A DNA stretch of 64,000 nucleotides from Chloroflexota bacterium (GCA_013152435.1 JAADGJ010000061.1:5034-69033), one strand, 5' to 3'; numbered from the stretch's first letter, positions 37,779-64,000 are shown. Notes: generated from the letters alone by a model not told the origin. Numbers and translations are program-made.

Positions 37779-38834
37779 ATGACGTTGATCGACGCCGATG
37801 TCATTCAGGATGCCGTGGTCCGGATGTTGCAGGTGAATATGGGGCTGCGAGCGGGGGAGCGGCTGCTGGTCGTCAGCGATTATCCCAATGAGATGCAGTG
37901 GTGTTCGGCGGATCCGTCGCTGTTGGAAAGCATCTGCCGACGGACGCTGCTGGGGCGGGCTGTGGCGGATATCGCCCGGGATCGCTTTCCCGACTCCTCC
38001 GTGACCTTCCTGGCCTTTCCCTCCACCGGCCAGAGCGGTAAGGAGCCGCCGCCGGATGTGGCGGCGGCCATGCGCCAGGCGCAAGTCGTCATCGCGATCA
38101 CGTCTTTCTCCCTCTCCCACACGGATGCCCGGGAAGGGGCGTGTCGGGCGGGCGCTCGCGTGGCCTCCATGCCGCGCTTCTTGCCGGAGATGTTCGAGCC
38201 GGGCGGGCCGATGGATGTGGATTACATGGCCGTGGAGCGGCGCACCCAGGCCATCGCCCGGGCCATCACCGGGGCGGAGGAGGTACGCGTCACGTCCCCG
38301 GACGGGACGGATATCCGCTTCAGCGTGGCCGACCGGCCGGGACAGGTGGATGCGGGCATTTACGATCGCCCTGGCGCGTGGGGGAATCTCCCGGCCGGGG
38401 AGGCGTACTGCACGCCGGTGGAGGGCTCCGGGCGAGGGCGGATCGTGGTCGTCCCGGGGTGGCACGCTCGCCTGGAGGAGCTCATGACGCTACATATCGA
38501 GAACGGCGAGCTGGTGGCCATCGACGGCGGCGGCCGCGTGGGAGAGGACCTGCGCGATCTGCTGCGCCCGGGCGATCCGTCGTCGCCCTATCGGGAGCGC
38601 CGGAACCTGGGCGAGTTCGGCGTTGGCACAAACCCGAACGCCCGGCGTGTGGATATCACTTTAGAGGCGGAGAAGATCATGGGGACGGTGCATCTGGCGC
38701 TGGGGGATAACTCGCACATGGGCGGACGGGTGAGCGCGGACTTCCACCAGGATTTCGTGGTCCCCAGGGCCAGCTTCTGGCTGGACGGCCGTCCGGTGAT
38801 GGAGAATGGTCAGCTGTTGATCGAGGAGGCGTAA
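37779..38834 (+). CDS. M29-like (aminopeptidase T/AmpS/NicX-fold) family protein, paralogue 1
   Basis: N-terminal pattern ...GLRAGERLLVVSD... and its length (351 aa) fit the aminopeptidase-T-like fold. Assignment is by motif recall, not by search. Confidence 0.45.
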   Translation: MTLIDADVIQDAVVRMLQVNMGLRAGERLLVVSDYPNEMQWCSADPSLLESICRRTLLGRAVADIARDRFPDSSVTFLAFPSTGQSGKEPPPDVAAAMRQAQVVIAITSFSLSHTDAREGACRAGARVASMPRFLPEMFEPGGPMDVDYMAVERRTQAIARAITGAEEVRVTSPDGTDIRFSVADRPGQVDAGIYDRPGAWGNLPAGEAYCTPVEGSGRGRIVVVPGWHARLEELMTLHIENGELVAIDGGGRVGEDLRDLLRPGDPSSPYRERRNLGEFGVGTNPNARRVDITLEAEKIMGTVHLALGDNSHMGGRVSADFHQDFVVPRASFWLDGRPVMENGQLLIEEA

Positions 38835-38839
38835 CGCGT

Positions 38840-39904
38840 ATGGAACTCGCGATTGGCACGGAACCCACCCCGACGTACCTGTCGTTTGAGCTAGCTCGCG
38901 GCGCTCGTCGGCTGATCGAGGACGTGATGCTGGTGAAGCCGGGCGAGAACGTGGTGATCACCGTGGACACCTCCAGTGATTGGCGGGTAGCCGAGGCCAC
39001 GGCCAGGGCCGCGTTCGCGGCGGGCGCCAGCCCGGTCGTCGTCTGGTACGAGGGGCGCCCGGACGCGGTCATGGAGCCCCCGCCTCCGGTGGCGGGAGCC
39101 ATCGCCCGCGCCGATGTGTGGATCGAGTACGCCGTAGCGTACATCCTGCACACGGAGGCGTACAAGGCCGCGTTGGCGAACGGATGTCGCTACATCTGCC
39201 TGACCGGCATGGATGTGGACATGATGGTCCGCACCATCGCCAATGTGGATTATCCCAAGATGATCGAGCTCAGCCACGTGTTGGGCGCGGCCATCGCCCA
39301 GGCGGACGAGATCCGGGTCACCAGCCCGGCGGGCACGGATCTGGTGGCGCGCATGGGCGGACGCAAGATCCGCTACTCCGGCAAGCTGGCGGATACGCCC
39401 GGCGAGCCCATCATGCTGGGCGGACAGATCTCCTGGTGCCCGCTGGAGGAGACCATCAACGGCACGCTGGTGTTCGATGGTGCCCTCTGGCCTCCCAAGG
39501 AGATCGGCCTGCTTCGTCAGCCCGTGCGCCTGACGGTGGAACAGGGGCGTGTGACCCGGGTGGAGGGGGGACCCGAGGCGAAGGTGCTGGAGCGCTGGTT
39601 CGCCTCCTTTGACAATCCGAACATCTATCGCATCGCGCACTACTCGCTGGGGTTCAACCCCGGCGTGACCCGGCCCACGGGGCGCATCGTCGAGGATGAG
39701 CGGGTGTTCGGCTGCATCGAGTTTGGCATCGGCAGCCAGGGGAAGCAGATCGGCGGCCCGGGCTGGGATGCCGGGGGACACACCGATGGCATCGTGCTCA
39801 ACCCGTCCATCTACCTGGACGGCGAGCCGCTGGAGGAGGAAGGGGTGTACGTCCGACCGGACGTCGTGGCCGCCTGTCGCGCGTTGGGCGTGCCAGGGTA
39901 CTGA
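38840..39904 (+). CDS. M29-like (aminopeptidase T/AmpS/NicX-fold) family protein, paralogue 2
   Basis: LVKPGENVVITVD...AAFAAGASPVVVWYEGRPD resembles the M29 N-terminal region. Tandem paralogue of the previous gene. Confidence 0.45.
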   Translation: MELAIGTEPTPTYLSFELARGARRLIEDVMLVKPGENVVITVDTSSDWRVAEATARAAFAAGASPVVVWYEGRPDAVMEPPPPVAGAIARADVWIEYAVAYILHTEAYKAALANGCRYICLTGMDVDMMVRTIANVDYPKMIELSHVLGAAIAQADEIRVTSPAGTDLVARMGGRKIRYSGKLADTPGEPIMLGGQISWCPLEETINGTLVFDGALWPPKEIGLLRQPVRLTVEQGRVTRVEGGPEAKVLERWFASFDNPNIYRIAHYSLGFNPGVTRPTGRIVEDERVFGCIEFGIGSQGKQIGGPGWDAGGHTDGIVLNPSIYLDGEPLEEEGVYVRPDVVAACRALGVPGY

Positions 39905-39913
39905 GTTTGGGGA

Positions 39914-41032
39914 ATGGTGATTATGGGGACCGCAAACAGACTGTACGAGCAGCCACTCACCATGGAGGTCGCCCGCATGGCCGCTTTCGGCGGCGCGGTG
40001 TTGGGCGGCGGTGGCGGCGGTGACATCGAGAATGGGCTTCAGCTGGCGCAACTGGCGCTGGAGATGGGACAGCCGCGCGTCCTGCCGGCGGATTCGCTGG
40101 CGAACGACGTGCTCGTCGTGACCGTCTCCGCGGTGGGGGCCCCGGCCGCGTCGGAGCAGTTCATCAAGCCGATCGATTACGTGGACGCCTTGAACCTCTT
40201 GCAGGAGCACATGGACAAGCCGGTGGGCGGGCTCATTACGAATGAAAACGGCGGCATGGCCACCGTCAACGGCTGGCTGCAATCGGCGCTTTCAGGCCTG
40301 CCCGTGGTGGATTGCCCGTGCAACGGCCGCGCACATCCCACCGGGCTGATGGGGGCGATGGGGCTGGACGAGCTTCCGAACTATGTCTCTCGCCAGGCGG
40401 CGGTGGGTGGTAACCCTCATGCCGGTCGTCGGGTGCGGCTGTATGTGGAGGGCGATCTACGTCGCGCGGCGCGATTGGTGCGCCAGGCCGCGGTGGAGGC
40501 GGGCGGCCTGGTAGGGGTGGCCCGCAATCCGGTCACCATGGCGTATGCGCGGGAGCATGGCGCGCCGGGAGCGCTGGCCCGGGCAGTGGAGGTCGGCCAG
40601 GCCCTGTTGGCGGCGTCCGATCCGGAGGCCGCGGCGCAGGCGGTGGCGGAGACGTTGGGCGGGCGGATCGTCGCTCGCGCCCGGGTTGCCCGGGTGGACC
40701 TGGTCACCCGAGGGGGGTTCGATGTCGGGACCGTGTACCTGGAGGACGATCTGCAGCTGACCTTCTGGAACGAGTACATGACCCTGGACCGCCGGGGGGA
40801 GCGATTGGGGACCTTCCCCGATCTCATCGCCACGCTGGCGGCTGACGAATCCCGGCCGTTGTCCTCGGCGGAGGTGAAGGAGGGGCAGGAGATCTTCGTG
40901 TTGCACGTCCCGCGCTCCCGTCTGCGGTTGGGGTCGGGGATGAGGCGGCCCAACCTGCTGCGGGCGGCGGAGGAGGCGGTCGGCCGACCGCTGGTCTCGT
41001 TCGTGTTCCCCGAGGAGAACTCTGAGCGCTGA
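39914..41032 (+). CDS. DUF917-like protein (glycine-rich GGGGGG loop)
   Basis: AFGGAVLGGGGGGD motif and size (~370 aa) typical of DUF917. Recalled, not searched. Confidence 0.4.
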   Translation: MVIMGTANRLYEQPLTMEVARMAAFGGAVLGGGGGGDIENGLQLAQLALEMGQPRVLPADSLANDVLVVTVSAVGAPAASEQFIKPIDYVDALNLLQEHMDKPVGGLITNENGGMATVNGWLQSALSGLPVVDCPCNGRAHPTGLMGAMGLDELPNYVSRQAAVGGNPHAGRRVRLYVEGDLRRAARLVRQAAVEAGGLVGVARNPVTMAYAREHGAPGALARAVEVGQALLAASDPEAAAQAVAETLGGRIVARARVARVDLVTRGGFDVGTVYLEDDLQLTFWNEYMTLDRRGERLGTFPDLIATLAADESRPLSSAEVKEGQEIFVLHVPRSRLRLGSGMRRPNLLRAAEEAVGRPLVSFVFPEENSER

Positions 41033-41156
41033 TTGGATCAGAAGCACCTGATCGGGAATCCCAGGACGAACCGGCTTCCATTTCCAGTAGGGACGCCGGA
41101 GGATTTCCTGGAATGGTATCGGAGGCAGTTCGCGGAATCAGGTTGAGGGGGGATCT

Positions 41157-42098
41157 GTGACGCTCAAGCAGGCTATAGAAGCGTATGAGCTGTTGGACAG
41201 CGCGCTTGTGGACGGCGATCATGTGGCGGCCCTATTGCATAACCGAGGGCTGACGGTGGAGACGTTCACCGTGGAGGGCGATAGGGGGCGCACGGACTTC
41301 GTTCGGGCCGTCCTGTACGGGGAGCGGGGAAAGCGGACCGGCGGAGATGCCCCCACATTGGGCATCATCGGCCGGTTGGGTGGCATCGGCGCCCGGCCGA
41401 CGGCTCTGGGGCTGGTGTCGGACGCGGATGGGGCGATCACGGCCATCACCTGCGCGCTGAAGCTGGCCGATCTGTGCCGCGCGGGCGATCGCTTGCCGGG
41501 CGACGTGGTCATTGCCACCCACATCTGCCCGCACGCTCCGACGGAGCCGCACGAGCCGGTGCCGTTCATGGGCTCACCGGTGGATATCGCCACCATGAAC
41601 CGGCACGAGGTCGCCGATGAGATGGACGCCATCCTGTGCATTGACACCACCCGGGGGAATTGGGTCATCAATCAGCGCGGCTTCGCTATCTCCCCCACGG
41701 TGATGCAGGGATGGATCCTGAAGGTGAGCGCCGATCTGCTGCGCATCATGTCCTACGTCACCGGGCGACCTCCGGTGGTCTTCCCGCTGAGCATGCAGGA
41801 CATCACCCCCTATGGCAACGGTGTGGATCATCTGAACAGCATCCTGCAGCCGGCGACGGCGACGGACGCTCCGGTGGTGGGCGTGGCGCTGACGGCGGAG
41901 ATACCGGTACCGGGGTGTGCGACGGGTGCCAGCCAGATCGTTGATATCGAGGCCGCCGCCCGGTTCTGCGTGGAGGTGGCCAAGGCGTTCACGCGCGGGG
42001 AGTGCCAGTTCTACGATCCGGACGAGTTCCGACGCCTGGTCGCCCTTTACGGCGAGATGCGCCATCTGCAGACCATGGGGCGCGAGGATGCGGCGTGA
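41157..42098 (+). CDS. DUF1177-like protein
   Basis: ~313 aa. Its position between DUF917-like and AroM-like genes matches a recurrent DUF917/DUF1177/AroM neighbourhood. GTG start with a GAGGGGGG RBS. Confidence 0.35.
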   Translation: MTLKQAIEAYELLDSALVDGDHVAALLHNRGLTVETFTVEGDRGRTDFVRAVLYGERGKRTGGDAPTLGIIGRLGGIGARPTALGLVSDADGAITAITCALKLADLCRAGDRLPGDVVIATHICPHAPTEPHEPVPFMGSPVDIATMNRHEVADEMDAILCIDTTRGNWVINQRGFAISPTVMQGWILKVSADLLRIMSYVTGRPPVVFPLSMQDITPYGNGVDHLNSILQPATATDAPVVGVALTAEIPVPGCATGASQIVDIEAAARFCVEVAKAFTRGECQFYDPDEFRRLVALYGEMRHLQTMGREDAA

Positions 42099-42769
42099 TG
42101 GCAAGGCCTTCTGTGTTGGGGCTCCTCACCATCGGGCAATCGCCCCGGGATGACGTGTTGCCGCAGGTCCTCCCGCATCTGCCGTCGGATGTGCGTATCA
42201 TCCAGGCGGGCGCGCTGGACGATCTGACGGACGAGGAGATCGCCGCTCTGGCGCCCGGCCCGGGCGATTACGTCCTCACGTCGCGGCTGCGGGACGGCCG
42301 CGCGGTGACGATGGCGCGGGAGAGGATCCTGCCGCTGATGCAGGCGCGCATCGAGGCGTTGGAGGCCCAGGGCGCCAATCCGATCTTCATCCTTTGCACG
42401 GGTGAGTTCCCGCCGTTTCGCTCTCGAGCGCTGCTGGTGGAGCCGGAGAAGATGCTGCCGGCTGTCGTGCGCGGCCTGACGGTGCGTCGGCTGGGCGTGA
42501 TCGCACCGCTGCCCGAGCAGCTTGATGCCATGCAGGAGAAGTGGCGTCCGGTATGCGCCGATCTGGCGGTGGCGGCCGGATCGCCCTATGGCCCTAAGGA
42601 ACGGGTCGTCGAGGCCGCGCTGTCCCTGCGAGGGCGGACGGTGGATCTCGTCGTGATGGATTGCATCGGCTATACGGAGGCGCATCGGGCCCTGGTGCGG
42701 GAGCAGGTCGACCGGCCGGTGATGCTGGCGTCGGCCGCGGCCGCACGCGTGGTGGGGGCGCTGCTTTGA
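42098..42769 (+). CDS. AroM-family protein
   Basis: Start reassigned to the ATG at 42098, overlapping the upstream stop (TGATG). LGLLTIGQSPRDDVLP and DCIGYT motifs resemble AroM. Confidence 0.45.
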   Translation: MARPSVLGLLTIGQSPRDDVLPQVLPHLPSDVRIIQAGALDDLTDEEIAALAPGPGDYVLTSRLRDGRAVTMARERILPLMQARIEALEAQGANPIFILCTGEFPPFRSRALLVEPEKMLPAVVRGLTVRRLGVIAPLPEQLDAMQEKWRPVCADLAVAAGSPYGPKERVVEAALSLRGRTVDLVVMDCIGYTEAHRALVREQVDRPVMLASAAAARVVGALL

Positions 42770-42943: not shown

Positions 42944-43322
42944 TCGCGTGATGCCGCTTCCATCTGTTCGTCTCGGATAGGCTTCTGATCCGACATAAAT
43001 CGGTTGGGTCGATGCAGATGTTACCCGAGATAGGATCGCATCTTCGGGCATAAACCGACAGGAAGTTGTGCCTCGCGTCGCTCCACGGCCGGATGCTCAA
43101 TGACGGCCCTCATCCCCCAGGCCCCCTTCTCCCGGGTTCGAGAGAAGGGGGCTCAACGGTAGAACACCTATGTTGCTTTTAAGCCTCCGGCCTGCGAATG
43201 TGCCGGAAAGCTATCACCACCCAGGGCTGGATGATCAACTGCGTGGGATAAACGTAAGGCCGTCCCCGACGACGCTGCCGATATTCGCTTGTGAAGGCAC
43301 TTGATCAACCAGAGAAAGCAAC

Positions 43323-43351
43323 CTGACAAGAAGGGCATTCCGTGATATCAT
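43323..43351 (+). promoter_or_regulatory. sigma70-like promoter CTGACA-17-TATCAT upstream of the SARP-family regulator gene
   Basis: Followed by a ~220-nt leader containing two strong GC hairpins. Confidence 0.35.
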
Positions 43352-43574
43352 GGGGCTGCCTCCGGTAGGTGGGGTTGAGCACCACGAACCTACCGAGGTG
43401 GCCGCGCCCCGTCAAGTGGGCGCGGCTCGATTTATGACCAGGTCTCGATTCAGTGACCCTGCTCACAACAAGCGTTAAGGATCGAGCAAACCGAAGCACT
43501 TTGGCCGTCAGCCGATCAGACTGTATGATCCGAGATCGCCTCACGAGCCAGGTGGATGTTGGGGAGATAACACT

Positions 43575-46500
43575 GTGCCGAATATTCGCATTCAGGCCTT
43601 GGGCGCTTTCAGTATGTGGCGAGACAGTATCGCGGTTCCCGATGAAGCCTGGCCTACATCAAAGAGCAAGCAGCTCTTCAAAATCTTACTCACCGAGCGG
43701 GGTCATCTTGTTTCGGCAGACCGGCTCATTGAGTATCTCTGGCCCGATCTGCCGCTTAAAAAAGCCCGGAACAATCTATGGGTAACGGTAAGTCAAGCGC
43801 GGCGTGTGTTGCAGCCTGATTTGCCGCCACGGACTCGCTCTGCTTATATCATCAAGCGCGATGAAGGTTATCTGTTTGATCCCCACAGCGACCACTGGCT
43901 GGACGTGGACGCTTTCAGCGATTACCTTCAGACGGCACAACAGGCAGCAGACCCGACCATCCGTATTGAAGCCCTGGAAAAAGCGCGGCACCTTTACCAG
44001 GGCGATTTCCTTGAGGATGACCCCTACGCAGAATGGGCGCTGGCCCCCCGCGATCGGTTACGAGAACAGTATCTAAACCTGCTGGCCGATTTGGCCGAAA
44101 CCTATGCGCAGCAAGAGCAATACCGCCAGGCTATTGGATTGTGTCGCCAAAGTCTCGCCCTCGAAAACAGCCGCGAATCCACCTATCGCCAATTGATGCT
44201 ATACCTCTATTGCACTGGTGAACAACCCGCCGCCCTGCAACTGTACGATGAGGTATGCCAGGTAATGCGGGAGGAAATCGGTGTTGAACCGGCCCCGGAA
44301 ACGAGCAACCTCTTTCACCAGATTCAACGGCGTCAGGTAGTCGGGGTGGACGAAAAGAAGGTCTACCCGCGCTCGGCATCGACGCACATCAGCACTCATT
44401 CGTTGAGGCAAACACCATTTGTAGGCCGCGCCCGGGAATACGGCCAATTGACCGCCATGGTCAACCAGGCCAACCAGGGCAACGGCTGTGTTGTCTTTGT
44501 CGGTGGTGAGCCGGGCATCGGTAAAAGCCGCCTGATGCGGGAGACGGCTATGTTCGCCGGCAAAGAGGGCTTTACCACGCTCTTTGTCCATAGTTACCAG
44601 GTAGAACAGGCCATGCTTTACCAACCCCTGGTAGACCTGGTCCGACATATCAACGAGACATGGCCGGAGCAAATTGCCGGCCTCCCCACCGTATGGCTCA
44701 GGGAAATCGCTGCACTGGTACCGGAAATTGCCGGCACCGCCACAGGTCAGGCCATTGTCCCCGCCAAAACAGACGAAAACCAGCAGGGACGGCTCTTTCA
44801 AGCCATCGTGCATTTGTTGTCGGCCATCGCCGGAGAAAATGGCCTTATGCTCAACGTGGATGACATCCACTGGGCCGATACAGCGACGCTCCAATTTCTC
44901 CACTATCTGGCCCGGCGTGTGTCTGGCGAACGGATATTGCTGGCCTGTACCTACCGCCACGAGGAAGTGACGGCCGATGAACACCTGGCCGCGCTCATTC
45001 ATCATCTCCAACGCGAGCCGCACGTGACCTTCATCTCCTTAAACCGCCTGTCAAGCACAGACATTGATGAACTGCTGGGCGCTCTGGAAACCGTGCCCAC
45101 TACCTGGAGTGAATGGCTCTATAGCGAAACAAGTGGCAACCCATTCTTTCTTGTTTCTATCCTTCAATTGTTGCAGGAACAGGGGGATTTGGGGAAAACC
45201 GCGCCGGCTGACATTCTCTCGACAGAGATCACCTTACCGGAGGCCATTCAGGAGTCGGTGCGGGGACGCTTGCGACAGGCAACGCAGTTGGAGCAACAGG
45301 TGCTGGGCTGGATGGCTGTTTTTGGTCGCAATTTCAGTTTTGCCACGCTGCAAGCCATCACCGGCCAGAGCCAGTTGGATCTGCTGAAGGTGGTAGAGAG
45401 CCTGCTGCAGCGGCAATTGTGGCAGGAAACGGCAGATGGTTACGACTTTAGCCACCACAAAATTCGCGAAGTGGTCTACCACGACCTGAGCGGGGCGCGT
45501 CGAGTTGTGTACCATGGCCAAATTGCAGAGATGCTGGCGCAATCGGCTGAGGACCGCCCGGCACTCTTGGCCCATCATTTTGAACGGGCCGGGAACACGG
45601 GACAGGCCCTGGCCTATTGGTTGCGGGCGGGCGAGAAGGCCCTCGACGCCTACGCCCTGCAACAGGCTGTTCGTCACTATGAGCGGGCCTTGGCCTTAGC
45701 GGAAGGGGCAGCCGACGAGATGGATGCCTACGAAGGGCTGGGCCGGGCCTTCATGTTGCTGGATGAGGTGGCTCAGGCTACGACCGTGTTGCAGCAAGGC
45801 ATCCAACTGGCGGAAGCGCAAGAAGATGACAGCCGTTATGCTCGCCTGTTGTTTGCGCGGGCCCAGCTTGCCAACCGGCAGCACAAAGTTACCACCAACT
45901 ACGTGCGCGCCGCGTTGTCTGCCGCCGAGCGAGCGGGCGATCTGGCTCTGGTCGCTCAAAATCTGCTGCTGCTTACTGAAATCTATGAAGGCCAGGGGGT
46001 TCTTGACAATGCCCTGGCCACCATTACCCGGGCCCAAACCATCAGCGACGAGTTGGGCGATGTCCACCTGGCAGCCCGTATCCGCAATGAGATTGGCTTT
46101 GTCCACACCCAGCGTGGCGAGTTCGCCGAGGCCATCGATATCGTAAAGCAGGCTCTAGAACCGTTAGCCCAGCTCGAAGACCGGATGTCACTGGCCTATT
46201 CCTGGAATCTGTTGGGACGCGCCTACGGCGGGTATGGTGACTACCAGCAAGCCATCGAGTCCTTTCAGCGCAGCCGGGTGGAAGCAGGAGCGGTCGGCGA
46301 CGGCTACCTCATTGTCCAGACACCCAATATGTTGGGCTGGCTGTACCGTGAATTGTGTGCCTTTGAACAGGCCCTGCAATTTGACCAGGAGGGGGTTGCC
46401 GTGGCCCAGGAGTGGGCTAAGGAGCCGCCGGAAGTTAGCGCCCGGCTCAATGTCTGTCTGGATGTGCTACACCTGGGCGAACCGGACCGGGCCTTGGGGA

Positions 46501-47003
46501 TGTTGGCCCAAATTCAGGAGCGGATCGACGCCGGGGTGTTTGGTTTCCACGCCTGGCGCTGGCGGCTGCGCATACTCCACGCGCGGGGGTTGTGTTTGCT
46601 GGCCATAAACCAACCCGCTGCTGTGCTCTCGCTGGTGGAGGAGGGTTTGACGCTAGCGGAGTCGGCCACGGTGCGCAAGTATGTTGCCCTCTACCATGGG
46701 TTAACAGGTTTGGCTCTGGCCAGGTTAGAGCGAACGGCCGACGCCATCAGCGAACTAGAAACCGCTGTGCAGTTGGCCGATGCCATCCACTATCAACCCC
46801 TTTGCTGGCAAGGTCGCGCCCATTTGGCGGCCTTGTATATCGATGTTGAGCGTCCTCAAGACGCCAAAACAAGCTTAACCGTTGCCCATCAAATCATTCG
46901 GCACATCGCCGATCACCTCACCGATGAAATCCTCCGAAATACCTTCTTAAATGCTGTGCCGGTGCAAGCAATTATCCGGCAACATGATAACTTAATATCT
47001 TGA
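43575..47003 (+). CDS. AfsR/SARP-family regulator: N-terminal wHTH + BTAD, central NB-ARC/AAA ATPase, C-terminal TPR array (STAND NTPase)
   Basis: The N-terminal 250 aa match the SARP DNA-binding/BTAD pattern (ALGAFSMWRD..., LLTERGHLVSADRLIEYLWPD, LYQGDFLEDDPYAEWA). Walker A VVFVGGEPGIGKSRL. Then a long TPR-like repeat region. GTG start with a GGGGAG RBS. GC is clearly lower than in the flanking genes. Confidence 0.8.
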   Translation: MPNIRIQALGAFSMWRDSIAVPDEAWPTSKSKQLFKILLTERGHLVSADRLIEYLWPDLPLKKARNNLWVTVSQARRVLQPDLPPRTRSAYIIKRDEGYLFDPHSDHWLDVDAFSDYLQTAQQAADPTIRIEALEKARHLYQGDFLEDDPYAEWALAPRDRLREQYLNLLADLAETYAQQEQYRQAIGLCRQSLALENSRESTYRQLMLYLYCTGEQPAALQLYDEVCQVMREEIGVEPAPETSNLFHQIQRRQVVGVDEKKVYPRSASTHISTHSLRQTPFVGRAREYGQLTAMVNQANQGNGCVVFVGGEPGIGKSRLMRETAMFAGKEGFTTLFVHSYQVEQAMLYQPLVDLVRHINETWPEQIAGLPTVWLREIAALVPEIAGTATGQAIVPAKTDENQQGRLFQAIVHLLSAIAGENGLMLNVDDIHWADTATLQFLHYLARRVSGERILLACTYRHEEVTADEHLAALIHHLQREPHVTFISLNRLSSTDIDELLGALETVPTTWSEWLYSETSGNPFFLVSILQLLQEQGDLGKTAPADILSTEITLPEAIQESVRGRLRQATQLEQQVLGWMAVFGRNFSFATLQAITGQSQLDLLKVVESLLQRQLWQETADGYDFSHHKIREVVYHDLSGARRVVYHGQIAEMLAQSAEDRPALLAHHFERAGNTGQALAYWLRAGEKALDAYALQQAVRHYERALALAEGAADEMDAYEGLGRAFMLLDEVAQATTVLQQGIQLAEAQEDDSRYARLLFARAQLANRQHKVTTNYVRAALSAAERAGDLALVAQNLLLLTEIYEGQGVLDNALATITRAQTISDELGDVHLAARIRNEIGFVHTQRGEFAEAIDIVKQALEPLAQLEDRMSLAYSWNLLGRAYGGYGDYQQAIESFQRSRVEAGAVGDGYLIVQTPNMLGWLYRELCAFEQALQFDQEGVAVAQEWAKEPPEVSARLNVCLDVLHLGEPDRALGMLAQIQERIDAGVFGFHAWRWRLRILHARGLCLLAINQPAAVLSLVEEGLTLAESATVRKYVALYHGLTGLALARLERTADAISELETAVQLADAIHYQPLCWQGRAHLAALYIDVERPQDAKTSLTVAHQIIRHIADHLTDEILRNTFLNAVPVQAIIRQHDNLIS

Positions 47004-47164
47004 TTGCCGTTTTATTTATCCCCCGCTTGATAAATCCTATTTAGTCCCCATTAAGTCGCGTCTTCTATAATTGGGTCAAGTTCAATCAAACGCAGGGCAT
47101 CTTCTCAGGAATCCCGAGATCGAGAAGATTACTCAACCATTCAACCATCAAACTGGAGAAGGAG

Positions 47165-47818
47165 ATGGCTGTGACGAATATCAAACAATCTGCCGAGAAT
47201 GCGGCATTAACCCTAAATCATGTTGCGCTCGCCAAGCACAAAGGAGTAAATGCACCTCATCCGCTCGTAACCCAAATCCGTTTTGCTCGCAGTGAATTTG
47301 CTCGCTGTTTAGATGGGCTCTCTGATAAAGACGCTCGCCATCGCATTATGCCCATGAACTGCATAAGTTGGATGGTTGGCCATCTGGCAGCCCAAGAGCA
47401 ATACTATTTTGTGTTTTTCCCCCAGGGTGAAGTGCCACACCCCCAATTGAATAAACTGGTCGGCTTCGGCCATCCCGCGTCGACGCCGCCCCTGGCCGAG
47501 ATGTGGCAAATCTGGCACGACATCACCCGAGCCGCGGATGCTTTCCTGGATGCGCTAACCACGGAACAATTGTTGATGCATCTGGAGCAGGAGATTGACG
47601 GATTTGAAGGCTCCTTATTCGGGACGGCCAGCAAGAAGGTTTTGGCACAAAGTAGTGTCCGCTCAAGTGAAAGCGTGGGCACCAGGATGCTTCGCACGAT
47701 CTATCATTACTTTTTTCACACGGGCGAAGCCCATGCCATTCGCCAGCAATTAGGACACCCGGATTTGCCGTATTTTGTAGGAGATATGGAGGCGGCTGTT
47801 TACCAGGGTCATCCCTGA
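47165..47818 (+). CDS. DinB/YfiT-like (DinB_2) family protein
   Basis: Four-helix-bundle DinB-type motifs (MVGHLAAQEQYY, HTGEAHAIRQQLG). RBS AAGGAG. Lower-GC codon usage like the SARP gene. Confidence 0.45.
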   Translation: MAVTNIKQSAENAALTLNHVALAKHKGVNAPHPLVTQIRFARSEFARCLDGLSDKDARHRIMPMNCISWMVGHLAAQEQYYFVFFPQGEVPHPQLNKLVGFGHPASTPPLAEMWQIWHDITRAADAFLDALTTEQLLMHLEQEIDGFEGSLFGTASKKVLAQSSVRSSESVGTRMLRTIYHYFFHTGEAHAIRQQLGHPDLPYFVGDMEAAVYQGHP

Positions 47819-47835
47819 TCCTATCACAGCCAAGA

Positions 47836-48215
47836 TGTCTAAGGGGTCTCCCTCAATCACCAACTCCACAGGGGATGGTGGTGGAGGGGATCGCCCCTCC
47901 ACGGAAAACCCCACTTTTCCTGCCTGCACCTGCCTTTCTCGGTCCTTTCCGAAGGGCCCAGGCCGAGGCCAGGCAGGTTGAAGGCAGAAGAAGGGCTTTT
48001 TCCGGGGGGGCGGTAGCCCCTCCGAAGAAGCCTATTTTCAGCCCCTCACCTGCCCCGTGGGGCCGGAGGCCACCGGCCAAAGCCCCAACCAGGCAGGGAA
48101 AAGGCGAGAGAAAGCGTTTTTCTGCGGAGGGGCTTCCCCTCGGAGGGGCTTCCCCTCCGCACCTCCCCTTTCGGGTGTGACCGCCCGTGGAGGGGAAAAG
48201 CGACAGGCGGGGGCC
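47836..48215 (+). repeat. copy C (longest) of the dispersed multi-hairpin repeat family
   Basis: Same orientation as copy D. Contains GGTGGAGGGGATCGCCCCTCCAC and a tandem duplication GGAGGGGCTTCCCCTC x2 (48126-48157). The overlapping ORFs 47875..48180 and 48046..48375 are rejected. Confidence 0.55.
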
Positions 48216-48420
48216 TCGCCCACGCTGTTCCGTTGATGCGAATAGGGCGCCCCACCGGGTCGCCCTTATCCGAAACGAATGGCGCGGCCCATGTTTCTTT
48301 CACCACGCGAAGATCAATAACTGAAAGAGGAGCGAAAATGTCGGTGATACACATCAAAGGATCTGTCAAACGCATAGGATGAGATCAATCGTCGCATTGG
48401 CTTTCGCAAGGAGATGAGAG

Positions 48421-48660
48421 ATGATCAGATGGAGCGACGTCCGAGGGAGGCAGGAGCACTACAGGGAACTGGTACGCGAGGCAGAGGAGTATCGTCTCGC
48501 GCAGCAGGCCATAAACGGATCGGGAGGATATGACTCTCCTCTTCGTGCCGCGTTCGTATCGTTGAGATCTCTATTGGGAAAAACCATTTGGCAACGCAAT
48601 GCATACCTTCGACAGGTAACCAAGGCTATGCACGCTGCCTGGTTCTCACTCAAACTCTAG
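48421..48660 (+). CDS. small hypothetical protein (79 aa)
   Basis: AAGGAG RBS 7 nt upstream of the ATG. Sits in the low-GC stretch and has no recognisable family. Confidence 0.3.
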   Translation: MIRWSDVRGRQEHYRELVREAEEYRLAQQAINGSGGYDSPLRAAFVSLRSLLGKTIWQRNAYLRQVTKAMHAAWFSLKL

Positions 48661-48912
48661 CTATCGGACACTTTTGAGTGGGCGATGGCCCCTGTCCTCT
48701 GATATGCTGATTGCCAAACCCATCAGCGTCAGAGGGACAGGATGGCCATCATCCACCTACATCGTGCCGTATTGGACGGGGTCCGACGGCTTCGACCCAA
48801 CGAGCGCGTGACACGGGTACGAAACATGGGCTGGTGAATGGCAAGGATCTTCATGGCCCGCAGTATGCATCTGAGCCATATCGCTCGAGGGCTCCCGGGT
48901 CCCAGCCAGAAG

Positions 48913-49104
48913 CTAGCGGTTGTCCCGCCTACTCCACAATGCGCACGTCCACGCCAACAATGCCCCCTCATGAGCAGCAACCCATTGCCCTATCCCGTAG
49001 GGTGTGCTCTCACCAAGAAGAATCCCAAGAGCAATCAAGACCAGAATGAGCTCCCAGGCATGCCGTTTCCCTCGCACTTGCCGGGGATCCGGAACCCCTT
49101 TCAA
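48913..49104 (-). pseudogene. N-terminal fragment (~63 aa) of an ISAs1-family transposase (DDE_Tnp_1-associated domain): an IS remnant
   Basis: VPDPRQVRGKRHAWELILVLIALGILLGESTPYGIGQWVAAHEGAL matches the ISAs1/H-repeat transposase N-terminal pattern PDxRQ..K.H.L.DIL.L.I.A...G......I..F...H. The ORF stops after 63 aa and no DDE core follows. Confidence 0.45.
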
Positions 49105-49186
49105 CGCTTCTACAAGCGTGTTCTATTCATGTAGAACCATCGGCCCGCTCCTCCTTCAATGTGTTCTTTTCCAAGGGCGTGTCTGA

Positions 49187-49436
49187 AGATTGACCAGCTA
49201 GGTGCCTGAGGGTCTCCCTCAGCTACCAGCTCCACAGGGGGAGGTGTGGAGGGGAAACCCCCTCCACGGAAATCTCACTTCTCCGGCTTGCACCTGCCTT
49301 TCTCGGCCCTTTCCGAAGGATCCAGGCCGAGGCCGGGCAGGTCGAAGGCAGAAGATGGACTTTTTCCGGAGGGGCTCCGCCCCTCCGGGCCTCCCCACAG
49401 CAGAAGCAATGGCATTTCTCAGACGCGCTCTAAAAG
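49187..49436 (+). repeat. copy D of the dispersed multi-hairpin repeat family
   Basis: Termini GGCGTGTCTGAAG ... TCTCAGACGCGCTC are inverted. Palindromes GTGGAGGGGAAACCCCCTCCAC (49245-49266) and CCGGAGGGGCTCCGCCCCTCCGG. About 85-90% identical to the reverse complement of copy A. Confidence 0.6.
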
Positions 49437-49588
49437 GAATTTACCGGCGGTTCTTCCCTCTATCACCTCGCGACTCTGAAAAGGCCCTGGGGCGCGTGGG
49501 GCCTCGCGCTGGCGCTCCTGACCCGCTATGCTATAATCCCTGTAGTTTGTCATCATCGATGCGCGGCCGCGAGTAGGAGGGGAAGGGG

Positions 49589-60575: not shown

Positions 60576-63500
60576 TCATTCACCGCGTGTGACGACCACC
60601 GGGATGCGGGTGGTCTGATCGGGCTGTTCCAGCACGATCTCCGTCTCCAGGACGTCGTTCGCGGGCAGCGCCTCCTCCCGGATCGCCAGCTCGACCCGAG
60701 CTCCCCTCCCTCGCTTCACGACCAGCCGATCCCGGTTGACGCGCAGCCACTCCGCCTGTGGATGAACCGTCACGGAGATCGGCGCGTAGCCCGTGTTCTT
60801 CAGCCGCAGGATAGGCGGTGTTTCTCCCAATGTCCATGTCAGCCGGCTGGATCCTACCACCAGCTGCCCGCTGAGCTGGATCTTGATGCGGATGTCCACC
60901 TGCTCCTGTCCCGCGTTGCTGATGACTTCCAGGGCCCCCTCGATGACGTTCTCCCCTTCGCGCAGGCCCTCCGGCGTGGCCCTCACCGTGATGGGTTGTT
61001 GGCCGCCGGTGGGGATCTGGAAGGTGTCGGGCTCCACCGTCAGCCAGGGGACGGAGGCCCGGATCGTGCCCGAGAGCTCGCCTACCCCGCGATTGAACAG
61101 GCTGAGGATGTCCTCCACCGGGACGTAGTTCGCGCTGGTGCCCAGGTCCAGCAGCGGGGGCGTCACCCACAGCTGAGGACGTGCGATGGCCACGGCGCCC
61201 TGGACGGTTCGCTCGCCCGCGTTGCTCTCGATGATCAGGGCCATCTGCGCCTCGTCCTGATCCGCGGGGACGGCCAGCCCGTAAGCATACAGGTGCACCT
61301 GGGACGTCTCACCCGGCGGGGTGGTCCCCTGGGGCATCGTCACCTCCAGCCAGAGCGCCTCGCTGGAGAGGGACCAGGCCAGCGGGGCTGTGCCCGGGTT
61401 GCTGATATACAGGGTCAGCTCTCCGACCCCCTCCCGGGGGATCACACCGAAGTTCAGGAACTCCGGCTCTACCTGCATCTCGGGTTTGTACACCAGGAGC
61501 GAGATCGGGACGTCTCGCGCCCCGGCGTTGCTCTCGATGTGGATGCCCGGGGCCGCCTGCCAGTCTCCGCCCTGCAGCATCTCCTCGGTGCGTGCCTCGA
61601 CGACGACGCGCGCGGATTTCCCCGGCGCGCACTCGATCTCGGTGGGCTCCAGGTGGAGCCAGGGGAGGAGCGCCTTCAGGTTGGCCCTTAGTGGGATCGT
61701 GCCCTGGTTGGATATCCGCAGGCTGCCGCGGCGCACCTCGCCCCACTCCGCTTCGCCCAGATCCAGGGAGATCGGTTTGACCTGCAGCACGGGGGCCAGG
61801 ATCTCCACGGAGGTGGCCAGGATCTTGCGCCCGGCGTTGCTCTCGATGACCAGCGCCTCACCCAGGGCGGTGACCCCGGCTGGGAGCCCCTCCAGATGGG
61901 CGTGTACGCGAATGGATTGCGACTCGCCGGGCGCGCAGGAGAAGCGTTCCGGCGATACGTCGATCCAGTCGCAGCGGGACAGCAGGCGTCCCTCCAGCGG
62001 CGCCGTGCCCGAGTTCGTGATGGTGAGGGTGATCTCCGCCTCCGATCCTCGCTCCCGCGCACCCCACGCCAGCTTCTCTGGCGCGAGGACCATTTCCGGC
62101 TCGGCCCAGCGCCAGCGCACGGAGAGCCGGGCCTGCCCATAGTCGCTGTCCACCACCAGCACGTCGGCGGCCTCCTCGACGCCCGGCGGGGCCAGATCCC
62201 CATGGAACCTCACGTGGATCTTTTGCCCTTCCTCCGCGCCGATTTGAAACTGGCGAGGGGTGACCGAGAGCCAGGTGACCGTGCTCCTCACCGCCCCCTG
62301 GATCTCGCCGCCCCCCTGATTGGCGATCACGATCTCGGCCTGGGCTTCCTGCCCGTGTCGGACCTGCCCGAAGTCGATCGATGTCGGCTGGACGGCCAGA
62401 GAGGGCACGATCAGGCTGGCCAGGGCCGGGATCCAGGTCGCTCCCCGGTTCGTGATGATGCGCAGCGCCCGGGGGGCGCGCTCCCCTTCCAATGGGAGCT
62501 GTTTGCCGTGGGCCACGACGATCACACGCGCCTCCTCGCCGGGCCGACAGCTGAAGCGGGCGTCTCGCACCTCCAGCCAGGGCAACGTGCTTTCCACCTC
62601 GCCCACGAGCACGCCCTGTCCCGTGTTCCGGATGCGCAAAGCTGTGCGTTTGGCCACGCGGCGGGTCAGCCCGCCGAAGGTGAACCGCTGTGGGCGGACG
62701 ATGAACTCCGGATCGGGCGGCGTGGCCTTGATCTCCGCCAGCCAGCGGGCGAAGAGAACCTGGCGTCCCAGCGCGTCCTCCATCTCTCCCCGGTCGAGTA
62801 GCTCTTCCGCCCTCTCCAGGGCGGCCTGGATCTGCTGCGCGATGTGATCCTGCTCGCCCTCCGCCAGCCGGGCGATCTCACGTTGCAGCTGGTCCAGGGT
62901 TTGCCCCCCGTAGAACCGTCGCACGGCGCGCAGCCAATCGCTTCGGGCCTGCTCCGCCAGATGGGATCGCAGGTCGGCCCAGGGATCCAGGGTCGGGTGC
63001 GCGACGATGGCGCTCGCGGCTGGCCGGGTTGGCGCGGCGAAGGAGGAGGGCTCGATGGGCTCCTGCGGGGCTTCCTCCTTTGGACGGGACGGGACGCCGG
63101 GCGCCGCCTTCGCCAGGGCGCGTCGCATGGCCTGGGCGGAGGGGAAGCGACGTTCGGGCGCGCGTTGGCGCGCCCGGCGGATGATCTGGGCCAGGGCCGG
63201 TGGCAATTCGTTCAGCCGGATGGGCGGCTGATTGGGAGCCTGTCGGGTGAGCATGTGGTAGAGCAGGCCGCCCAGCGCATAGAGATCGCTGCGGGCGTCG
63301 GCCTCCCATCGCTCTCGTTGCTCCGGCGCGGCGTACCCTGGGCTGCCGCGATAGCGTGGAGGGCCCTGGTCCCATGGGGTGAACCACGCGCTCAGCCCGA
63401 AGTCGATCAGCTTGACCCGGCCCTCCGTGGTGATCATCACATGCCTGGGGTTCAGGTCGCCGAAGATGAGCGGTGGCGTCTGGCCGTGGAGGAAGGCCAG

Positions 63501-64000
63501 CGCGTCGCAGATTTGCAGCGCCCAGGCCACCGCGGTAAGTTCGTCGATCTCCATTCGGGGATCCGCGATCAGGCGTCGCAGGCTGTGCCCGCGTACCCAC
63601 TCCATGACCAGGTACGAGCGGCCGGCCTGGATGAACATGTCCTGGATGCGGGCCAGACGTGGATGGCGCACCTGGGCCCAGCGGGCCGCCTCCGCGTGGA
63701 ACGATCGCTGCGCCTCGTCGCGCTCGAAGTCGTCGGGCAGGCGGCGCGGATGGAACTCCTTGATCACGCAGCGCCTTCCCAGAGCCTGATCACGCGCCAG
63801 ATAGACGGCGGTGGCATGCCCGCGCTTCAGCCGTTTTTCGATGGTGTAGCGCCCTTGCAGGGTCGTCGGCGCGCCGAAAAGCTCCTCAAAGGAGAGGGGA
63901 TCCGTGAGGCGAGAGCCGCATTGTGGGCAGCGCTGGGCGCCCGGGCGGACGGGCGCGCCGCAGCGTGGGCATCGCGTTTGCAGCGGGAGCCCACAGGATA
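60576..64000 (-). CDS. Ser/Thr protein kinase with an N-terminal zinc ribbon and a C-terminal array of >=8 Ig-like (ASH/PapD-like) beta-sandwich repeats; 5' end outside window
   Basis: The in-frame upstream translation continues past the track's GTG start (63767): ...CPRCGAPVRPGAQRCPQCGSRLTDP...LQGRYTIEKRLKRGHATAVYLARDQALGRRCVIKEF (Zn-ribbon, G-loop, VIK). Kinase subdomains HRDLKPxN-like (FGDLNPRHV), DFG, APE. The C-terminal ~700 aa are tandem ~85-aa repeats with the pattern L.FG......L.I.N.G..PL.G...S...WL.V.P..F.C.PGE. Confidence 0.8.
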   Translation of the reverse strand, partial: SCGLPLQTRCPRCGAPVRPGAQRCPQCGSRLTDPLSFEELFGAPTTLQGRYTIEKRLKRGHATAVYLARDQALGRRCVIKEFHPRRLPDDFERDEAQRSFHAEAARWAQVRHPRLARIQDMFIQAGRSYLVMEWVRGHSLRRLIADPRMEIDELTAVAWALQICDALAFLHGQTPPLIFGDLNPRHVMITTEGRVKLIDFGLSAWFTPWDQGPPRYRGSPGYAAPEQRERWEADARSDLYALGGLLYHMLTRQAPNQPPIRLNELPPALAQIIRRARQRAPERRFPSAQAMRRALAKAAPGVPSRPKEEAPQEPIEPSSFAAPTRPAASAIVAHPTLDPWADLRSHLAEQARSDWLRAVRRFYGGQTLDQLQREIARLAEGEQDHIAQQIQAALERAEELLDRGEMEDALGRQVLFARWLAEIKATPPDPEFIVRPQRFTFGGLTRRVAKRTALRIRNTGQGVLVGEVESTLPWLEVRDARFSCRPGEEARVIVVAHGKQLPLEGERAPRALRIITNRGATWIPALASLIVPSLAVQPTSIDFGQVRHGQEAQAEIVIANQGGGEIQGAVRSTVTWLSVTPRQFQIGAEEGQKIHVRFHGDLAPPGVEEAADVLVVDSDYGQARLSVRWRWAEPEMVLAPEKLAWGARERGSEAEITLTITNSGTAPLEGRLLSRCDWIDVSPERFSCAPGESQSIRVHAHLEGLPAGVTALGEALVIESNAGRKILATSVEILAPVLQVKPISLDLGEAEWGEVRRGSLRISNQGTIPLRANLKALLPWLHLEPTEIECAPGKSARVVVEARTEEMLQGGDWQAAPGIHIESNAGARDVPISLLVYKPEMQVEPEFLNFGVIPREGVGELTLYISNPGTAPLAWSLSSEALWLEVTMPQGTTPPGETSQVHLYAYGLAVPADQDEAQMALIIESNAGERTVQGAVAIARPQLWVTPPLLDLGTSANYVPVEDILSLFNRGVGELSGTIRASVPWLTVEPDTFQIPTGGQQPITVRATPEGLREGENVIEGALEVISNAGQEQVDIRIKIQLSGQLVVGSSRLTWTLGETPPILRLKNTGYAPISVTVHPQAEWLRVNRDRLVVKRGRGARVELAIREEALPANDVLETEIVLEQPDQTTRIPVVVTRGE

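Follow-up and report, generated by a model that had tools for sequence, protein, structure and literature searches.

A predicted SARP-LAL-type activator with a putative operator and a putative DinB-type target gene in Anaerolineae-type Chloroflexota

The regulator gene and its domains

We analyzed a 64-kb stretch of DNA (64,000 nucleotides, nt; hereafter, the window) from a Chloroflexota bacterium (GCA_013152435.1, JAADGJ010000061.1:5034-69033), in which the gene of a large putative transcriptional activator is directly followed, on the same strand, by a gene for a DinB-type enzyme. A pair of direct heptamers and a -10 hexamer lie between the two, and are the predicted operator and promoter of the second gene (Table 1). 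The regulator gene is an open reading frame (ORF) of 1142 amino acids (aa) with a GTG start, called at exactly 43575-47003 on the plus strand, and this start is credible because the N-terminus of the product (VPNIRIQALGAF...) lines up with those of its homologues.

Table 1 The regulator, the predicted control elements and the predicted target gene, in window coordinates
Feature	Position	Strand	Evidence
SARP-AAA_16-TPR regulator gene (predicted SARP-LAL-type STAND activator), 1142 aa	43575..47003	+	ORF calling, Pfam, AlphaFold2 (AF2) model, >3900 homologues
OmpR-type winged helix DNA-binding domain, aa 28-101	43656..43877	+	Trans_reg_C (Pfam), AfsR superposition
BTAD, aa 109-251	43899..44327	+	PF03704, fold matches to AfsR and EmbR
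P-loop NTPase, AAA_16 type, aa 281-451	44415..44927	+	PF13191
Winged-helix motif YDFSHHKIRE, aa 623-632, of the nucleotide-binding oligomerisation module	45441..45470	+	Conservation, AF2 model
TPR sensor region, aa ~662-1141, ~24 helices in regular hairpins	45558..47000	+	Pfam, AF2 model
Predicted SARP operator, direct heptamers ATTTAGT + ATTAAGT, 11 bp apart	47039..47056	+	Motif scans, comparative loci
-10 hexamer TATAAT, no -35 consensus	47066..47071	+	Sequence, N9 spacing across loci
DinB/YfiT-fold, mycothiol-S-transferase-like metalloenzyme gene, 217 aa, predicted target	47165..47818	+	Pfam, AF2 model, Foldseek, linkage

In Pfam searches, the OmpR-type winged helix-turn-helix (wHTH; Trans_reg_C) was directly followed by a BTAD domain, for which PF03704 scored 92.8 bits (cut-off 22.1) over its full profile length, and the two make up a SARP. 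An AAA_16 NTPase (PF13191, 77.5 bits) comes next, and TPR_12, TPR_1, TPR_2, TPR_8 and TPR_MalT matched at aa ~670-1100 in a TPR region of ~480 aa. NB-ARC had no match in the protein even at E<=0.1, NACHT reached 14 bits, under its cut-off, and neither a GerE/LuxR helix-turn-helix (HTH) nor a cyclase domain was found by Pfam.

The protein has the hallmarks of STAND proteins, with both Walker motifs and a conserved histidine in the winged helix ahead of a repeat sensor. Across 26 homologues with 36-89% identity, G311, G314, G316 and K317 of Walker A (GGEPGIGKSRL, aa 310-320, nt 44502-44534) and D429/D430 of Walker B (LMLNVDD, aa 424-430, nt 44844-44864) were invariant, as were F625, H627 and K629 of the FSHHK motif, so that a working ATP-dependent switch is likely. 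The surrounding peptide YDFSHHKIRE was selected by the tool among the two most conserved of the regulator, and by analogy with what is known of the family (AfsR: bioRxiv 10.64898/2026.09.02.748808), its conserved histidine may take the 'MHD'-type switch position of STAND/NLR proteins. The most conserved stretch of the family, which was also chosen automatically as such, is the recognition helix of the wHTH (ARNNLWVTVSQARRVLQ, aa ~61-79, nt 43755-43811), where A64, N66, L68, W69, V70, Q74 and R76 of the pattern A-x-N-N-L-W-V...Q-x-R were invariant. By domain, the mean pairwise identity in the homologue set was highest for the DNA-binding domain (70%), followed by the TPR region (62%), and the BTAD and the nucleotide-binding oligomerisation domain (NOD) (58-59%).

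The AlphaFold model of the regulator, for which the 26 homologues were the input, had a mean predicted local distance difference test score (pLDDT) of 85.8. The nucleotide-binding, helical and winged-helix elements were modelled confidently, with strands at 616-625 and then a helix at 628-637 around FSHHK, and the TPR helices (H662-H1141) had pLDDT values mostly >90.

The first-pass annotation of this DNA had read the 1142-aa protein as a wHTH plus BTAD (SARP), a P-loop NTPase with the above Walker A motif and a TPR region, which ORF calling and Pfam confirmed. Its suggestion of a signal-integrating transcriptional activator is supported by the combination of a SARP, a STAND-type NTPase and a TPR sensor. 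It had also expected NB-ARC along with Trans_reg_C, BTAD and TPR; the latter three were found, whereas AAA_16 stands in the place of NB-ARC.

Probable affiliation with the SARP-LAL class

The AfsR architecture, as which the protein had initially been described, did not hold. The NCBIfam equivalog for AfsR (NF053617) scored 96.8 bits against a cut-off of 1430 and aligned to aa 4-322 only. In the PDB sequence searches the similarity to AfsR ended at ~residue 330, both for the single protein and for a profile of the 26 sequences, and the NTPase module had no match with either query. This module was placed only by fold (Foldseek, PDB), beside PH0952. In the same fold search, the SARP part superposed on AfsR (8K60) with a template modelling (TM) score of 0.82, a root-mean-square deviation of 3.1 A and 26% identity, and on EmbR with a TM score of 0.58, while the part comprising NTPase, helical, winged-helix and TPR elements was best aligned to PH0952 (6MFV; 770 columns, E 6.5e-14). 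The best NCBIfam match was TIGR03903, at aa 275-718, with the ATPase-TPR part (positions 476-929) of a model for a TOMM kinase/cyclase fusion.

The 'large SARPs' of Streptomyces with NB-ARC (AfsR, PolY) have been distinguished from 'SARP-LAL' proteins (PMC10972967). According to PMC10972967 and PMC3367932, the C-terminal half of SARP-LAL proteins is similar to the ATP-binding region of LAL regulators/guanylate cyclases without the LuxR HTH, and PimR, SanG, FilR, PteR and ScnRI are examples. By this published description of architecture, the regulator fits the SARP-LAL (PimR/SanG-type) class and not the AfsR class, because its NTPase is of the AAA_16 (MalT/PH0952-like) type and not NB-ARC. As described there, the order of SARP, P-loop ATPase and TPR, with no LuxR HTH, is common to the regulator and to PimR, SanG, PolR, FilR, PteR and ScnRI, though these are from Actinomycetota and the regulator is from Chloroflexota.

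Streptomyces coelicolor AfsR (8K60/8JKE/8HVR) has a homologous SARP domain and the same overall arrangement of SARP, STAND ATPase and TPR, but its NTPase is an NB-ARC module instead of AAA_16, with no detectable sequence similarity beyond ~residue 330. It is also a global regulator under Ser/Thr phosphorylation, and nothing suggests such control here. PH0952 and the MalT-like STAND clade have the fold of the NTPase-helical-winged-helix-TPR part, the AAA_16 family and, presumably, autoinhibition by the TPR arm in common with the regulator; however, PH0952 is just 14% identical and has no SARP output domain, and the output domain of MalT is a C-terminal LuxR HTH.

A direct repeat at a fixed distance from a -10 hexamer

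A side-by-side comparison of the intergenic regions revealed a box as the sole element in common. In the window it reads ATTTAGT-cccc-ATTAAGT-cgcgtcttc-TATAAT (47039-47071) and starts 35 nt past the regulator stop codon, with TATAAT 9 nt after the heptamer ATTAAGT, which equals 8 nt after the 8-bp repeat core. The first-pass annotation had pointed to heptameric direct repeats upstream of 47165 as a feature to look for, and the search was clearly positive.

The pattern ATTWAGT-N4-ATTAAGT with <=2 mismatches had one match in the window versus 0.02 expected by chance, and this remained the sole match when 3 mismatches were allowed. At <=2 mismatches, both strands of 1.19 Mb of related loci gave 20 on-target matches and 3 elsewhere. 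Nearly all on-target boxes (19/20) begin from 5 nt before to 136 nt after the regulator stop codon, and the one in L027 is divergent, upstream of the regulator. Loci were counted as informative if the regulator identity was >=34% and sequence past the stop codon was at hand; 20 of 21 such loci, with protein identities of 34-89% and host GC contents of 0.43-0.68, had the box at the regulator gene with unchanged geometry, and L028 alone was without it. The N4 spacer and the N9 distance to TAnnnT were invariant in all 20 loci, where the information content peaked only at the repeats and the -10, the rest of the intergenic regions being unconserved. The invariant recognition helix of the wHTH parallels this invariant box.

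The genes behind the box varied more than the box itself. It was in place when the first downstream gene was DUF1059 (L007, L009, L020), before an SCO4226-like gene plus another DinB_2/MST protein (L015, L016), before DUF2917 (L023), and before a DUF1326 gene preceding DinB (L005), and in L027 it precedes a gene without assigned family and an MFS transporter gene. We also scanned metagenomes by motif first (ATTAAGT-N4-ATTAAGTTGC-N6-TANNNT). This returned 24 contigs, 18 with the regulator directly upstream and/or DinB directly downstream and 4 that were chance matches in low-GC or tandem-repeat sequence; the other two are discussed below.

In published SARP promoters, direct repeats are 11 or 22 bp apart, and the 3' repeat is 8 bp from the -10 and overlaps the -35 (PMC10936776; PMC11301090; PMC10972967). 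The geometry at 47039-47071 agrees with this rule (PMC10936776, PMC11301090). The SARP-LAL proteins likewise bind heptameric direct repeats with 4-nt spacers and an 11-bp period, and AfsR activates from two 11-bp direct repeats in place of the -35, at a distance of 8 bp to the -10. PimR acts on a single adjacent promoter, as predicted for the regulator here, but has three upstream repeats, unlike the two repeats here that overlap the -35 position as in SanG and PolR. The heptamer of the SARP-LAL proteins is CGGCAAG instead of ATTAAGT, and their targets are pathway regulator or biosynthetic genes, whereas a DinB-type enzyme gene is the predicted target here. A sigma-70 scanner that needs a -35 found no promoter at the box, in keeping with a promoter that depends on an activator.

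Regarding autoregulation, allowing up to 3 mismatches gave no box in front of the regulator gene, and the two sigma-70-like sites there (43323-43351 and 43501-43529) were no more than chance gives. An A/T-rich element (ATAAATCC, 47030-47037) lies just 5' of the box and is common to about half of the loci (the window, L004, L012, L018, L021, L026). We do not claim it as a third binding repeat, given that it is 9-10 nt and not 11 from the next repeat, which puts it out of register. It may be a UP-like element, or else a third repeat that has degenerated. In the 5' leader of the DinB gene, an inverted repeat (ATCTTCTC...GAGAAGAT, 47100-47131) was rejected as a regulatory hairpin, as it folds no better than shuffled sequences (z = 0.28). 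A small protein family (FIV[RQ][IL]W...WRGTAE[RH]IGS...) is encoded after a family-like box in L097 (12847-13083) and also ~1.3 kb downstream of the box in L020 (3495-3689), and may be a further regulon member.

The DinB/MST-like gene

The 217-aa product of the gene behind the box matched the Pfam families MST (mycothiol S-transferase; 38.9 bits) and DinB_2 (28.9 bits), both above the cut-offs. With the NCBIfam MST equivalog it scored 15.5 bits, far under the cut-off of 170, so the superfamily is assignable and the activity is not. In its AlphaFold model (pLDDT 80), disorder was confined to the first 28 residues, and the best fold matches were Mycobacterium tuberculosis MST (Rv0443, 8F5V), DR0053 (6IZ2), DR_1065 and BstA (5WK0), with 13-20% identity (Foldseek). 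The DinB four-helix-bundle fold, the conserved histidines and the Pfam MST/DinB_2 matches are in common with Rv0443, BstA and DR0053, but besides the low identity, the protein here differs by two extra invariant cysteines, C48 and C66. Of its histidines, H73, H181 and H190 were also invariant in 26 homologues and H185 nearly so, and the four are candidate metal-binding residues of the bundle. The mean pairwise identity of the DinB proteins was 75% versus 58-70% for the regulator domains.

In most loci, DinB starts at a conserved Met two residues before HPLVTQ. The corresponding codon in the window is GCA, and the start has moved to ATG 47165, which adds 31 predicted-disordered residues. The other genes behind the box, i.e., DinB variants, OsmC, DUF1059, SCO4226-like and DUF1326, are for small cytoplasmic proteins, several of them metal- or thiol-related. 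This is a weak hint, and the only one, that the signal may be thiol-reactive, oxidative or metal stress.

Linkage, history and composition of the cassette

All ORFs around the regulator were clustered in 27 loci, and two neighbour families alone were conserved, DinB/MST-like and OsmC-like. In 13 loci, the window among them, DinB comes directly after the regulator on its strand, and an OsmC-like gene follows it in 5 of the 27; the window has no OsmC-like gene. In reverse look-ups from DinB homologues (69-77% identity), a SARP-AAA_16-TPR gene was always directly upstream, while the other neighbours differed. The first-pass annotation had treated the DinB/YfiT-like gene as adjoining the regulator. 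The family and the adjacency are confirmed, and beyond this the gene is a conserved partner and a likely target.

The outer flanks were unrelated among loci, already at 88% regulator identity (L005), and the DUF1177/AroM genes upstream of the regulator are in common with same-species contigs only. Comparative genomics establishes where the site lies, how it is spaced and that it co-occurs with the regulator, and by the comparison of loci, the regulator, the predicted operator and the putative target make up a compact cassette that is kept, with differing flanks, in many Anaerolineae-type Chloroflexota.

Variants of this arrangement were seen in several loci. In L113 there are two DinB genes around one regulator, the downstream one sharing its strand and the other divergent, with a box in front of it, and two tandem DinB paralogues lie behind the box in L100 (6210-7417). 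The regulator is split by frameshifts or stops into two pieces each in L005 (10001-13429) and L016 (9968-13421), and into three in L025 (9950-13458), which may be decaying cassettes or assembly errors. L016 and L025 are without the window-type DinB subfamily, and the box is kept in both.

A foreign-looking island had been noted here in the first pass, and the GC dip across 43-49 kb of the window is real. At third codon positions, the GC content is 0.78-0.87 in eight neighbouring genes, but just 0.65 in the regulator gene and 0.55 in DinB. In other genomes, the GC content of the cassette tracks that of the host. Scans of the window for tRNAs and Rfam families found nothing, so there is no tRNA-linked integration site, and no integrase or transposase was seen in the window. 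Overall, horizontal acquisition of the cassette in this lineage is plausible from its composition and contexts.

The 1.77 kb from DinB to an ADP-ribosylglycohydrolase gene (47819-49588) hold just small ORFs without family, and a 181-nt direct repeat (47844-48024 and 49210-49387) whose copies are 84.5% identical. About 470 nt of it (49033-49501) are missing from the 98% relative L003, and a 183-aa gene is called in L082 where the window has just a 101-aa ORF (47875-48180); the region may be an indel or rearrangement scar at the segment edge. The 800-nt gap upstream of the regulator contains a GC-rich inverted repeat (CCCCCTTCTC...GAGAAGGGGG, 43123-43150). At 43180 (43179-43181), a ~42-nt indel interrupts the alignments with L082 and L003, two contigs of the same species, and palindromes of a similar type (GGGAGAGGGG) are found in an intergenic region of L005.

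Host and distribution of the regulator family

The host is probably a member of the Anaerolineales (Chloroflexota). No public assembly gave an exact match to the regulator protein, and the host was recognised instead from contigs with 98-99% identity. The window DNA is 98.4-99.0% identical to a contig of GCA_054014295.1, and 96.9% over a third, ~1-kb aligned segment; compared with this contig, 5 regulator residues are changed and no DinB residue. A contig of a metagenome-assembled genome (MAG) labelled 'Chloroflexota bacterium' carries a counterpart of the regulator with 98% protein identity (DNA 95-97%), and the next relatives, with protein identities of 89%, 88% and 71%, are labelled Anaerolineaceae, Anaerolineales and Anaerolineae.

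A total of >3900 proteins match the regulator at E<=1e-10. The named full-length homologues at ~50% identity are all from Chloroflexota (Anaerolineales, Promineifilaceae, Ardenticatenales, Caldilineaceae), and relatives at ~30% identity are from Acetothermia/Bipolaricaulota and one Trueperaceae genome. The protein had been flagged as outside its usual actinobacterial context, and this stands against the experimental literature but not in sequence space, where full-length homologues from Chloroflexota are abundant. Two typical Anaerolineae-type cassettes (L014 and L018; regulator 46-53%, DinB 74-78%) carry the bin labels 'Halomonas sp.' and 'Candidatus Sumerlaeota', which are probably binning errors, or else reflect transfer.

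The AAA_16-TPR chassis was also observed with other N-termini (P0092; L057, 9293-12742; L046, 9653-12706). It is fused to a Ser/Thr kinase in P0092 (51% identity over 76% of the query), and carries an Xre-type HTH in Burkholderiales of the Polaromonas/Rhodoferax type (31-36%). Judging from these sequences, this indicates one AAA_16-TPR sensor module with swapped N-terminal output domains.

Literature searches of the library at hand, for SARPs in Chloroflexota/Anaerolineae and for BTAD with DinB, gave nothing relevant, so the cassette and its operator appear to be undescribed. The kind of system is well known, namely a SARP-LAL activator on an adjacent promoter via 11-bp-spaced heptamers.

Proposed mode of action and its alternatives

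We consider it likely that the regulator is a SARP-LAL-type activator that acts locally, in an ATP-dependent and signal-gated manner, on the DinB promoter just past its own stop codon. By analogy with PH0952, MalT and AfsR, the protein at rest would probably be inactive and ADP-bound, with the TPR arm packed on the nucleotide-binding module. A signal sensed by the TPR region, which the target genes suggest could be thiol-reactive, oxidative or metal stress, would lead to nucleotide exchange and self-association. Two SARP domains would then sit side by side on ATTTAGT/ATTAAGT, and these repeats, 8-9 nt upstream of TATAAT, would stand in for the -35 and allow RNA polymerase to be recruited, which would switch on transcription of the DinB/MST-like gene.

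Several points weigh against this proposal. Binding to the box, activation, and the ATP dependence of the regulator are steps that we infer. The Trans_reg_C score barely exceeds the Pfam cut-off (29.0 vs 26.2 bits, at aa 28-101). Identities of the two proteins are discordant in some pairs, with the regulator at 89% and DinB at 73% relative to L004, and the regulator at 53% and DinB at 81% relative to L008, and they correlate overall with r = 0.51. The pairing is therefore not strictly co-inherited, and strict co-inheritance was rejected; the discordance points to DinB genes that were replaced or recombined within cassettes, or that evolved faster in one lineage. Two of the 24 contigs from the motif-first scan (L097, L114) have a family-like box and no regulator in the sequence at hand, which would mean either that the regulon is wider than the cassette or that these are partial views. 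Moreover, no terminator was detected between the regulator and DinB genes, so some co-transcription with the regulator is possible, and the box could supplement read-through instead of being the sole promoter.

The lack of a terminator also fits a different explanation, in which the genes are co-transcribed and the repeat, instead of being the operator of the regulator, serves another OmpR-type regulator or is conserved as part of the 3' end of the regulator gene. The closeness of the box to the regulator gene (35 nt past the stop codon) would agree with this, as would its overlap with the end of the coding sequence in L008 and L020. However, a -10-like hexamer is always at the fixed 9 nt after the box, the position of the box relative to the regulator holds when the downstream gene changes, as well as in the divergent arrangement of L027, and the invariance of the recognition helix parallels that of the box. 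SARP domains also bind exactly such direct heptamers, with an 11-bp period (PMC10936776, PMC10972967). We thus regard this explanation as unlikely.

An antiviral role of the Avs/NLR-like kind, with the TPR region recognising a phage protein and defence as the output, possibly through induction of a toxic or protective gene, appears very improbable. The regulator is built like the Avs systems and bacterial NLR-like proteins, with an output domain at the N-terminus, a STAND NTPase and a repeat sensor at the C-terminus, the cassette is compositionally foreign and found in varied genomic contexts among relatives, and defence and non-defence clades of STAND proteins are intermingled (PMC12803255). 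The same survey lists AfsR and MalT among the non-immune members (PMC12803255). The output domain here is a DNA-binding activator with a conserved operator, and not a nuclease, protease, TIR or other killing domain, in line with the first-pass remark that no nuclease or other effector is visible. PADLOC gave just a generic TPR match (20.5 bits), no relatives were found in viral contigs, and the neighbours are metabolic or stress genes with no defence-island context. The target has a thiol-transferase-like fold. A hypervariable sensor of the arms-race type was rejected, as the TPR region matches the rest of the regulator in conservation (62% vs 58-59% for BTAD/NOD). The defence role that had been left open in the first pass accordingly found no support.

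Least credible of all is an AfsR orthologue or analogue, i.e., an NB-ARC-based global regulator that is controlled by kinases and governs secondary metabolism: the order of domain types (SARP, P-loop NTPase, TPR), AfsR as the best PDB sequence match, the fold match of the SARP part to AfsR, and a box geometry as at the afsS promoter speak for it, but the missing NB-ARC match, the low equivalog score, the end of the alignments near residue 330 even with the family profile, the lack of biosynthetic genes in the window or related loci, and the single box in 64 kb, which points to a local rather than global role as far as visible, speak against it.

Returning to the local SARP-LAL-type activator, a bolder extension would be that the cassette is self-contained, horizontally mobile and widespread among Anaerolineae of marine and sediment habitats, and that in it an NLR-like STAND receptor with a conserved, not diversifying, TPR sensor responds to one specific chemical insult by directly inducing a DinB-type enzyme dedicated to detoxification. 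We hold this tentatively, with more doubt than confidence. If true, SARP regulons would for the first time extend beyond Actinomycetota and beyond secondary metabolism, and the cassette would be a minimal system for finding the ligand of a TPR-sensor STAND transcription factor.

SARPs have been studied almost exclusively as activators of antibiotic pathways in actinomycetes, and recent surveys of AfsR-like proteins were confined to Actinomycetota (bioRxiv 10.64898/2026.09.02.748808). The locus reveals a large Chloroflexota clade that appears to use the same activation geometry on a different target, a very conserved DinB-type enzyme. The main value is a clean prediction of regulator, operator and target, which is directly testable because the operator, the -10, the regulator and the target lie within 4.3 kb and are conserved across many genomes. 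It offers a handle on what TPR-sensor STAND transcription factors sense and on what this DinB subfamily does. The practical value is modest, consisting of better annotation for hundreds of 'AAA family ATPase / TPR protein' genes in Chloroflexota MAGs, and a regulatory motif for them.

Other genes of the window

The rest of the window is ordinary chromosome, with genes for three ABC-transporter peptide-binding proteins (SBP_bac_5), an H+-pyrophosphatase and ATP synthase. Directly upstream of the regulator (37779-42769), and behind peptide ABC-transporter genes, is a conserved group comprising a NicX-like pair, S-Me-THD (hydantoinase-like), DUF1177 and AroM. With its listed coordinate (42002), the AroM ORF overlaps DUF1177; in a related contig, a 223-aa product is called from the DUF1177 stop. 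On the minus strand at 60576-63767, a gene unrelated to the cassette encodes a 1063-aa protein with an N-terminal Ser/Thr kinase and many Ig-like/ASH/BACON-type repeats.

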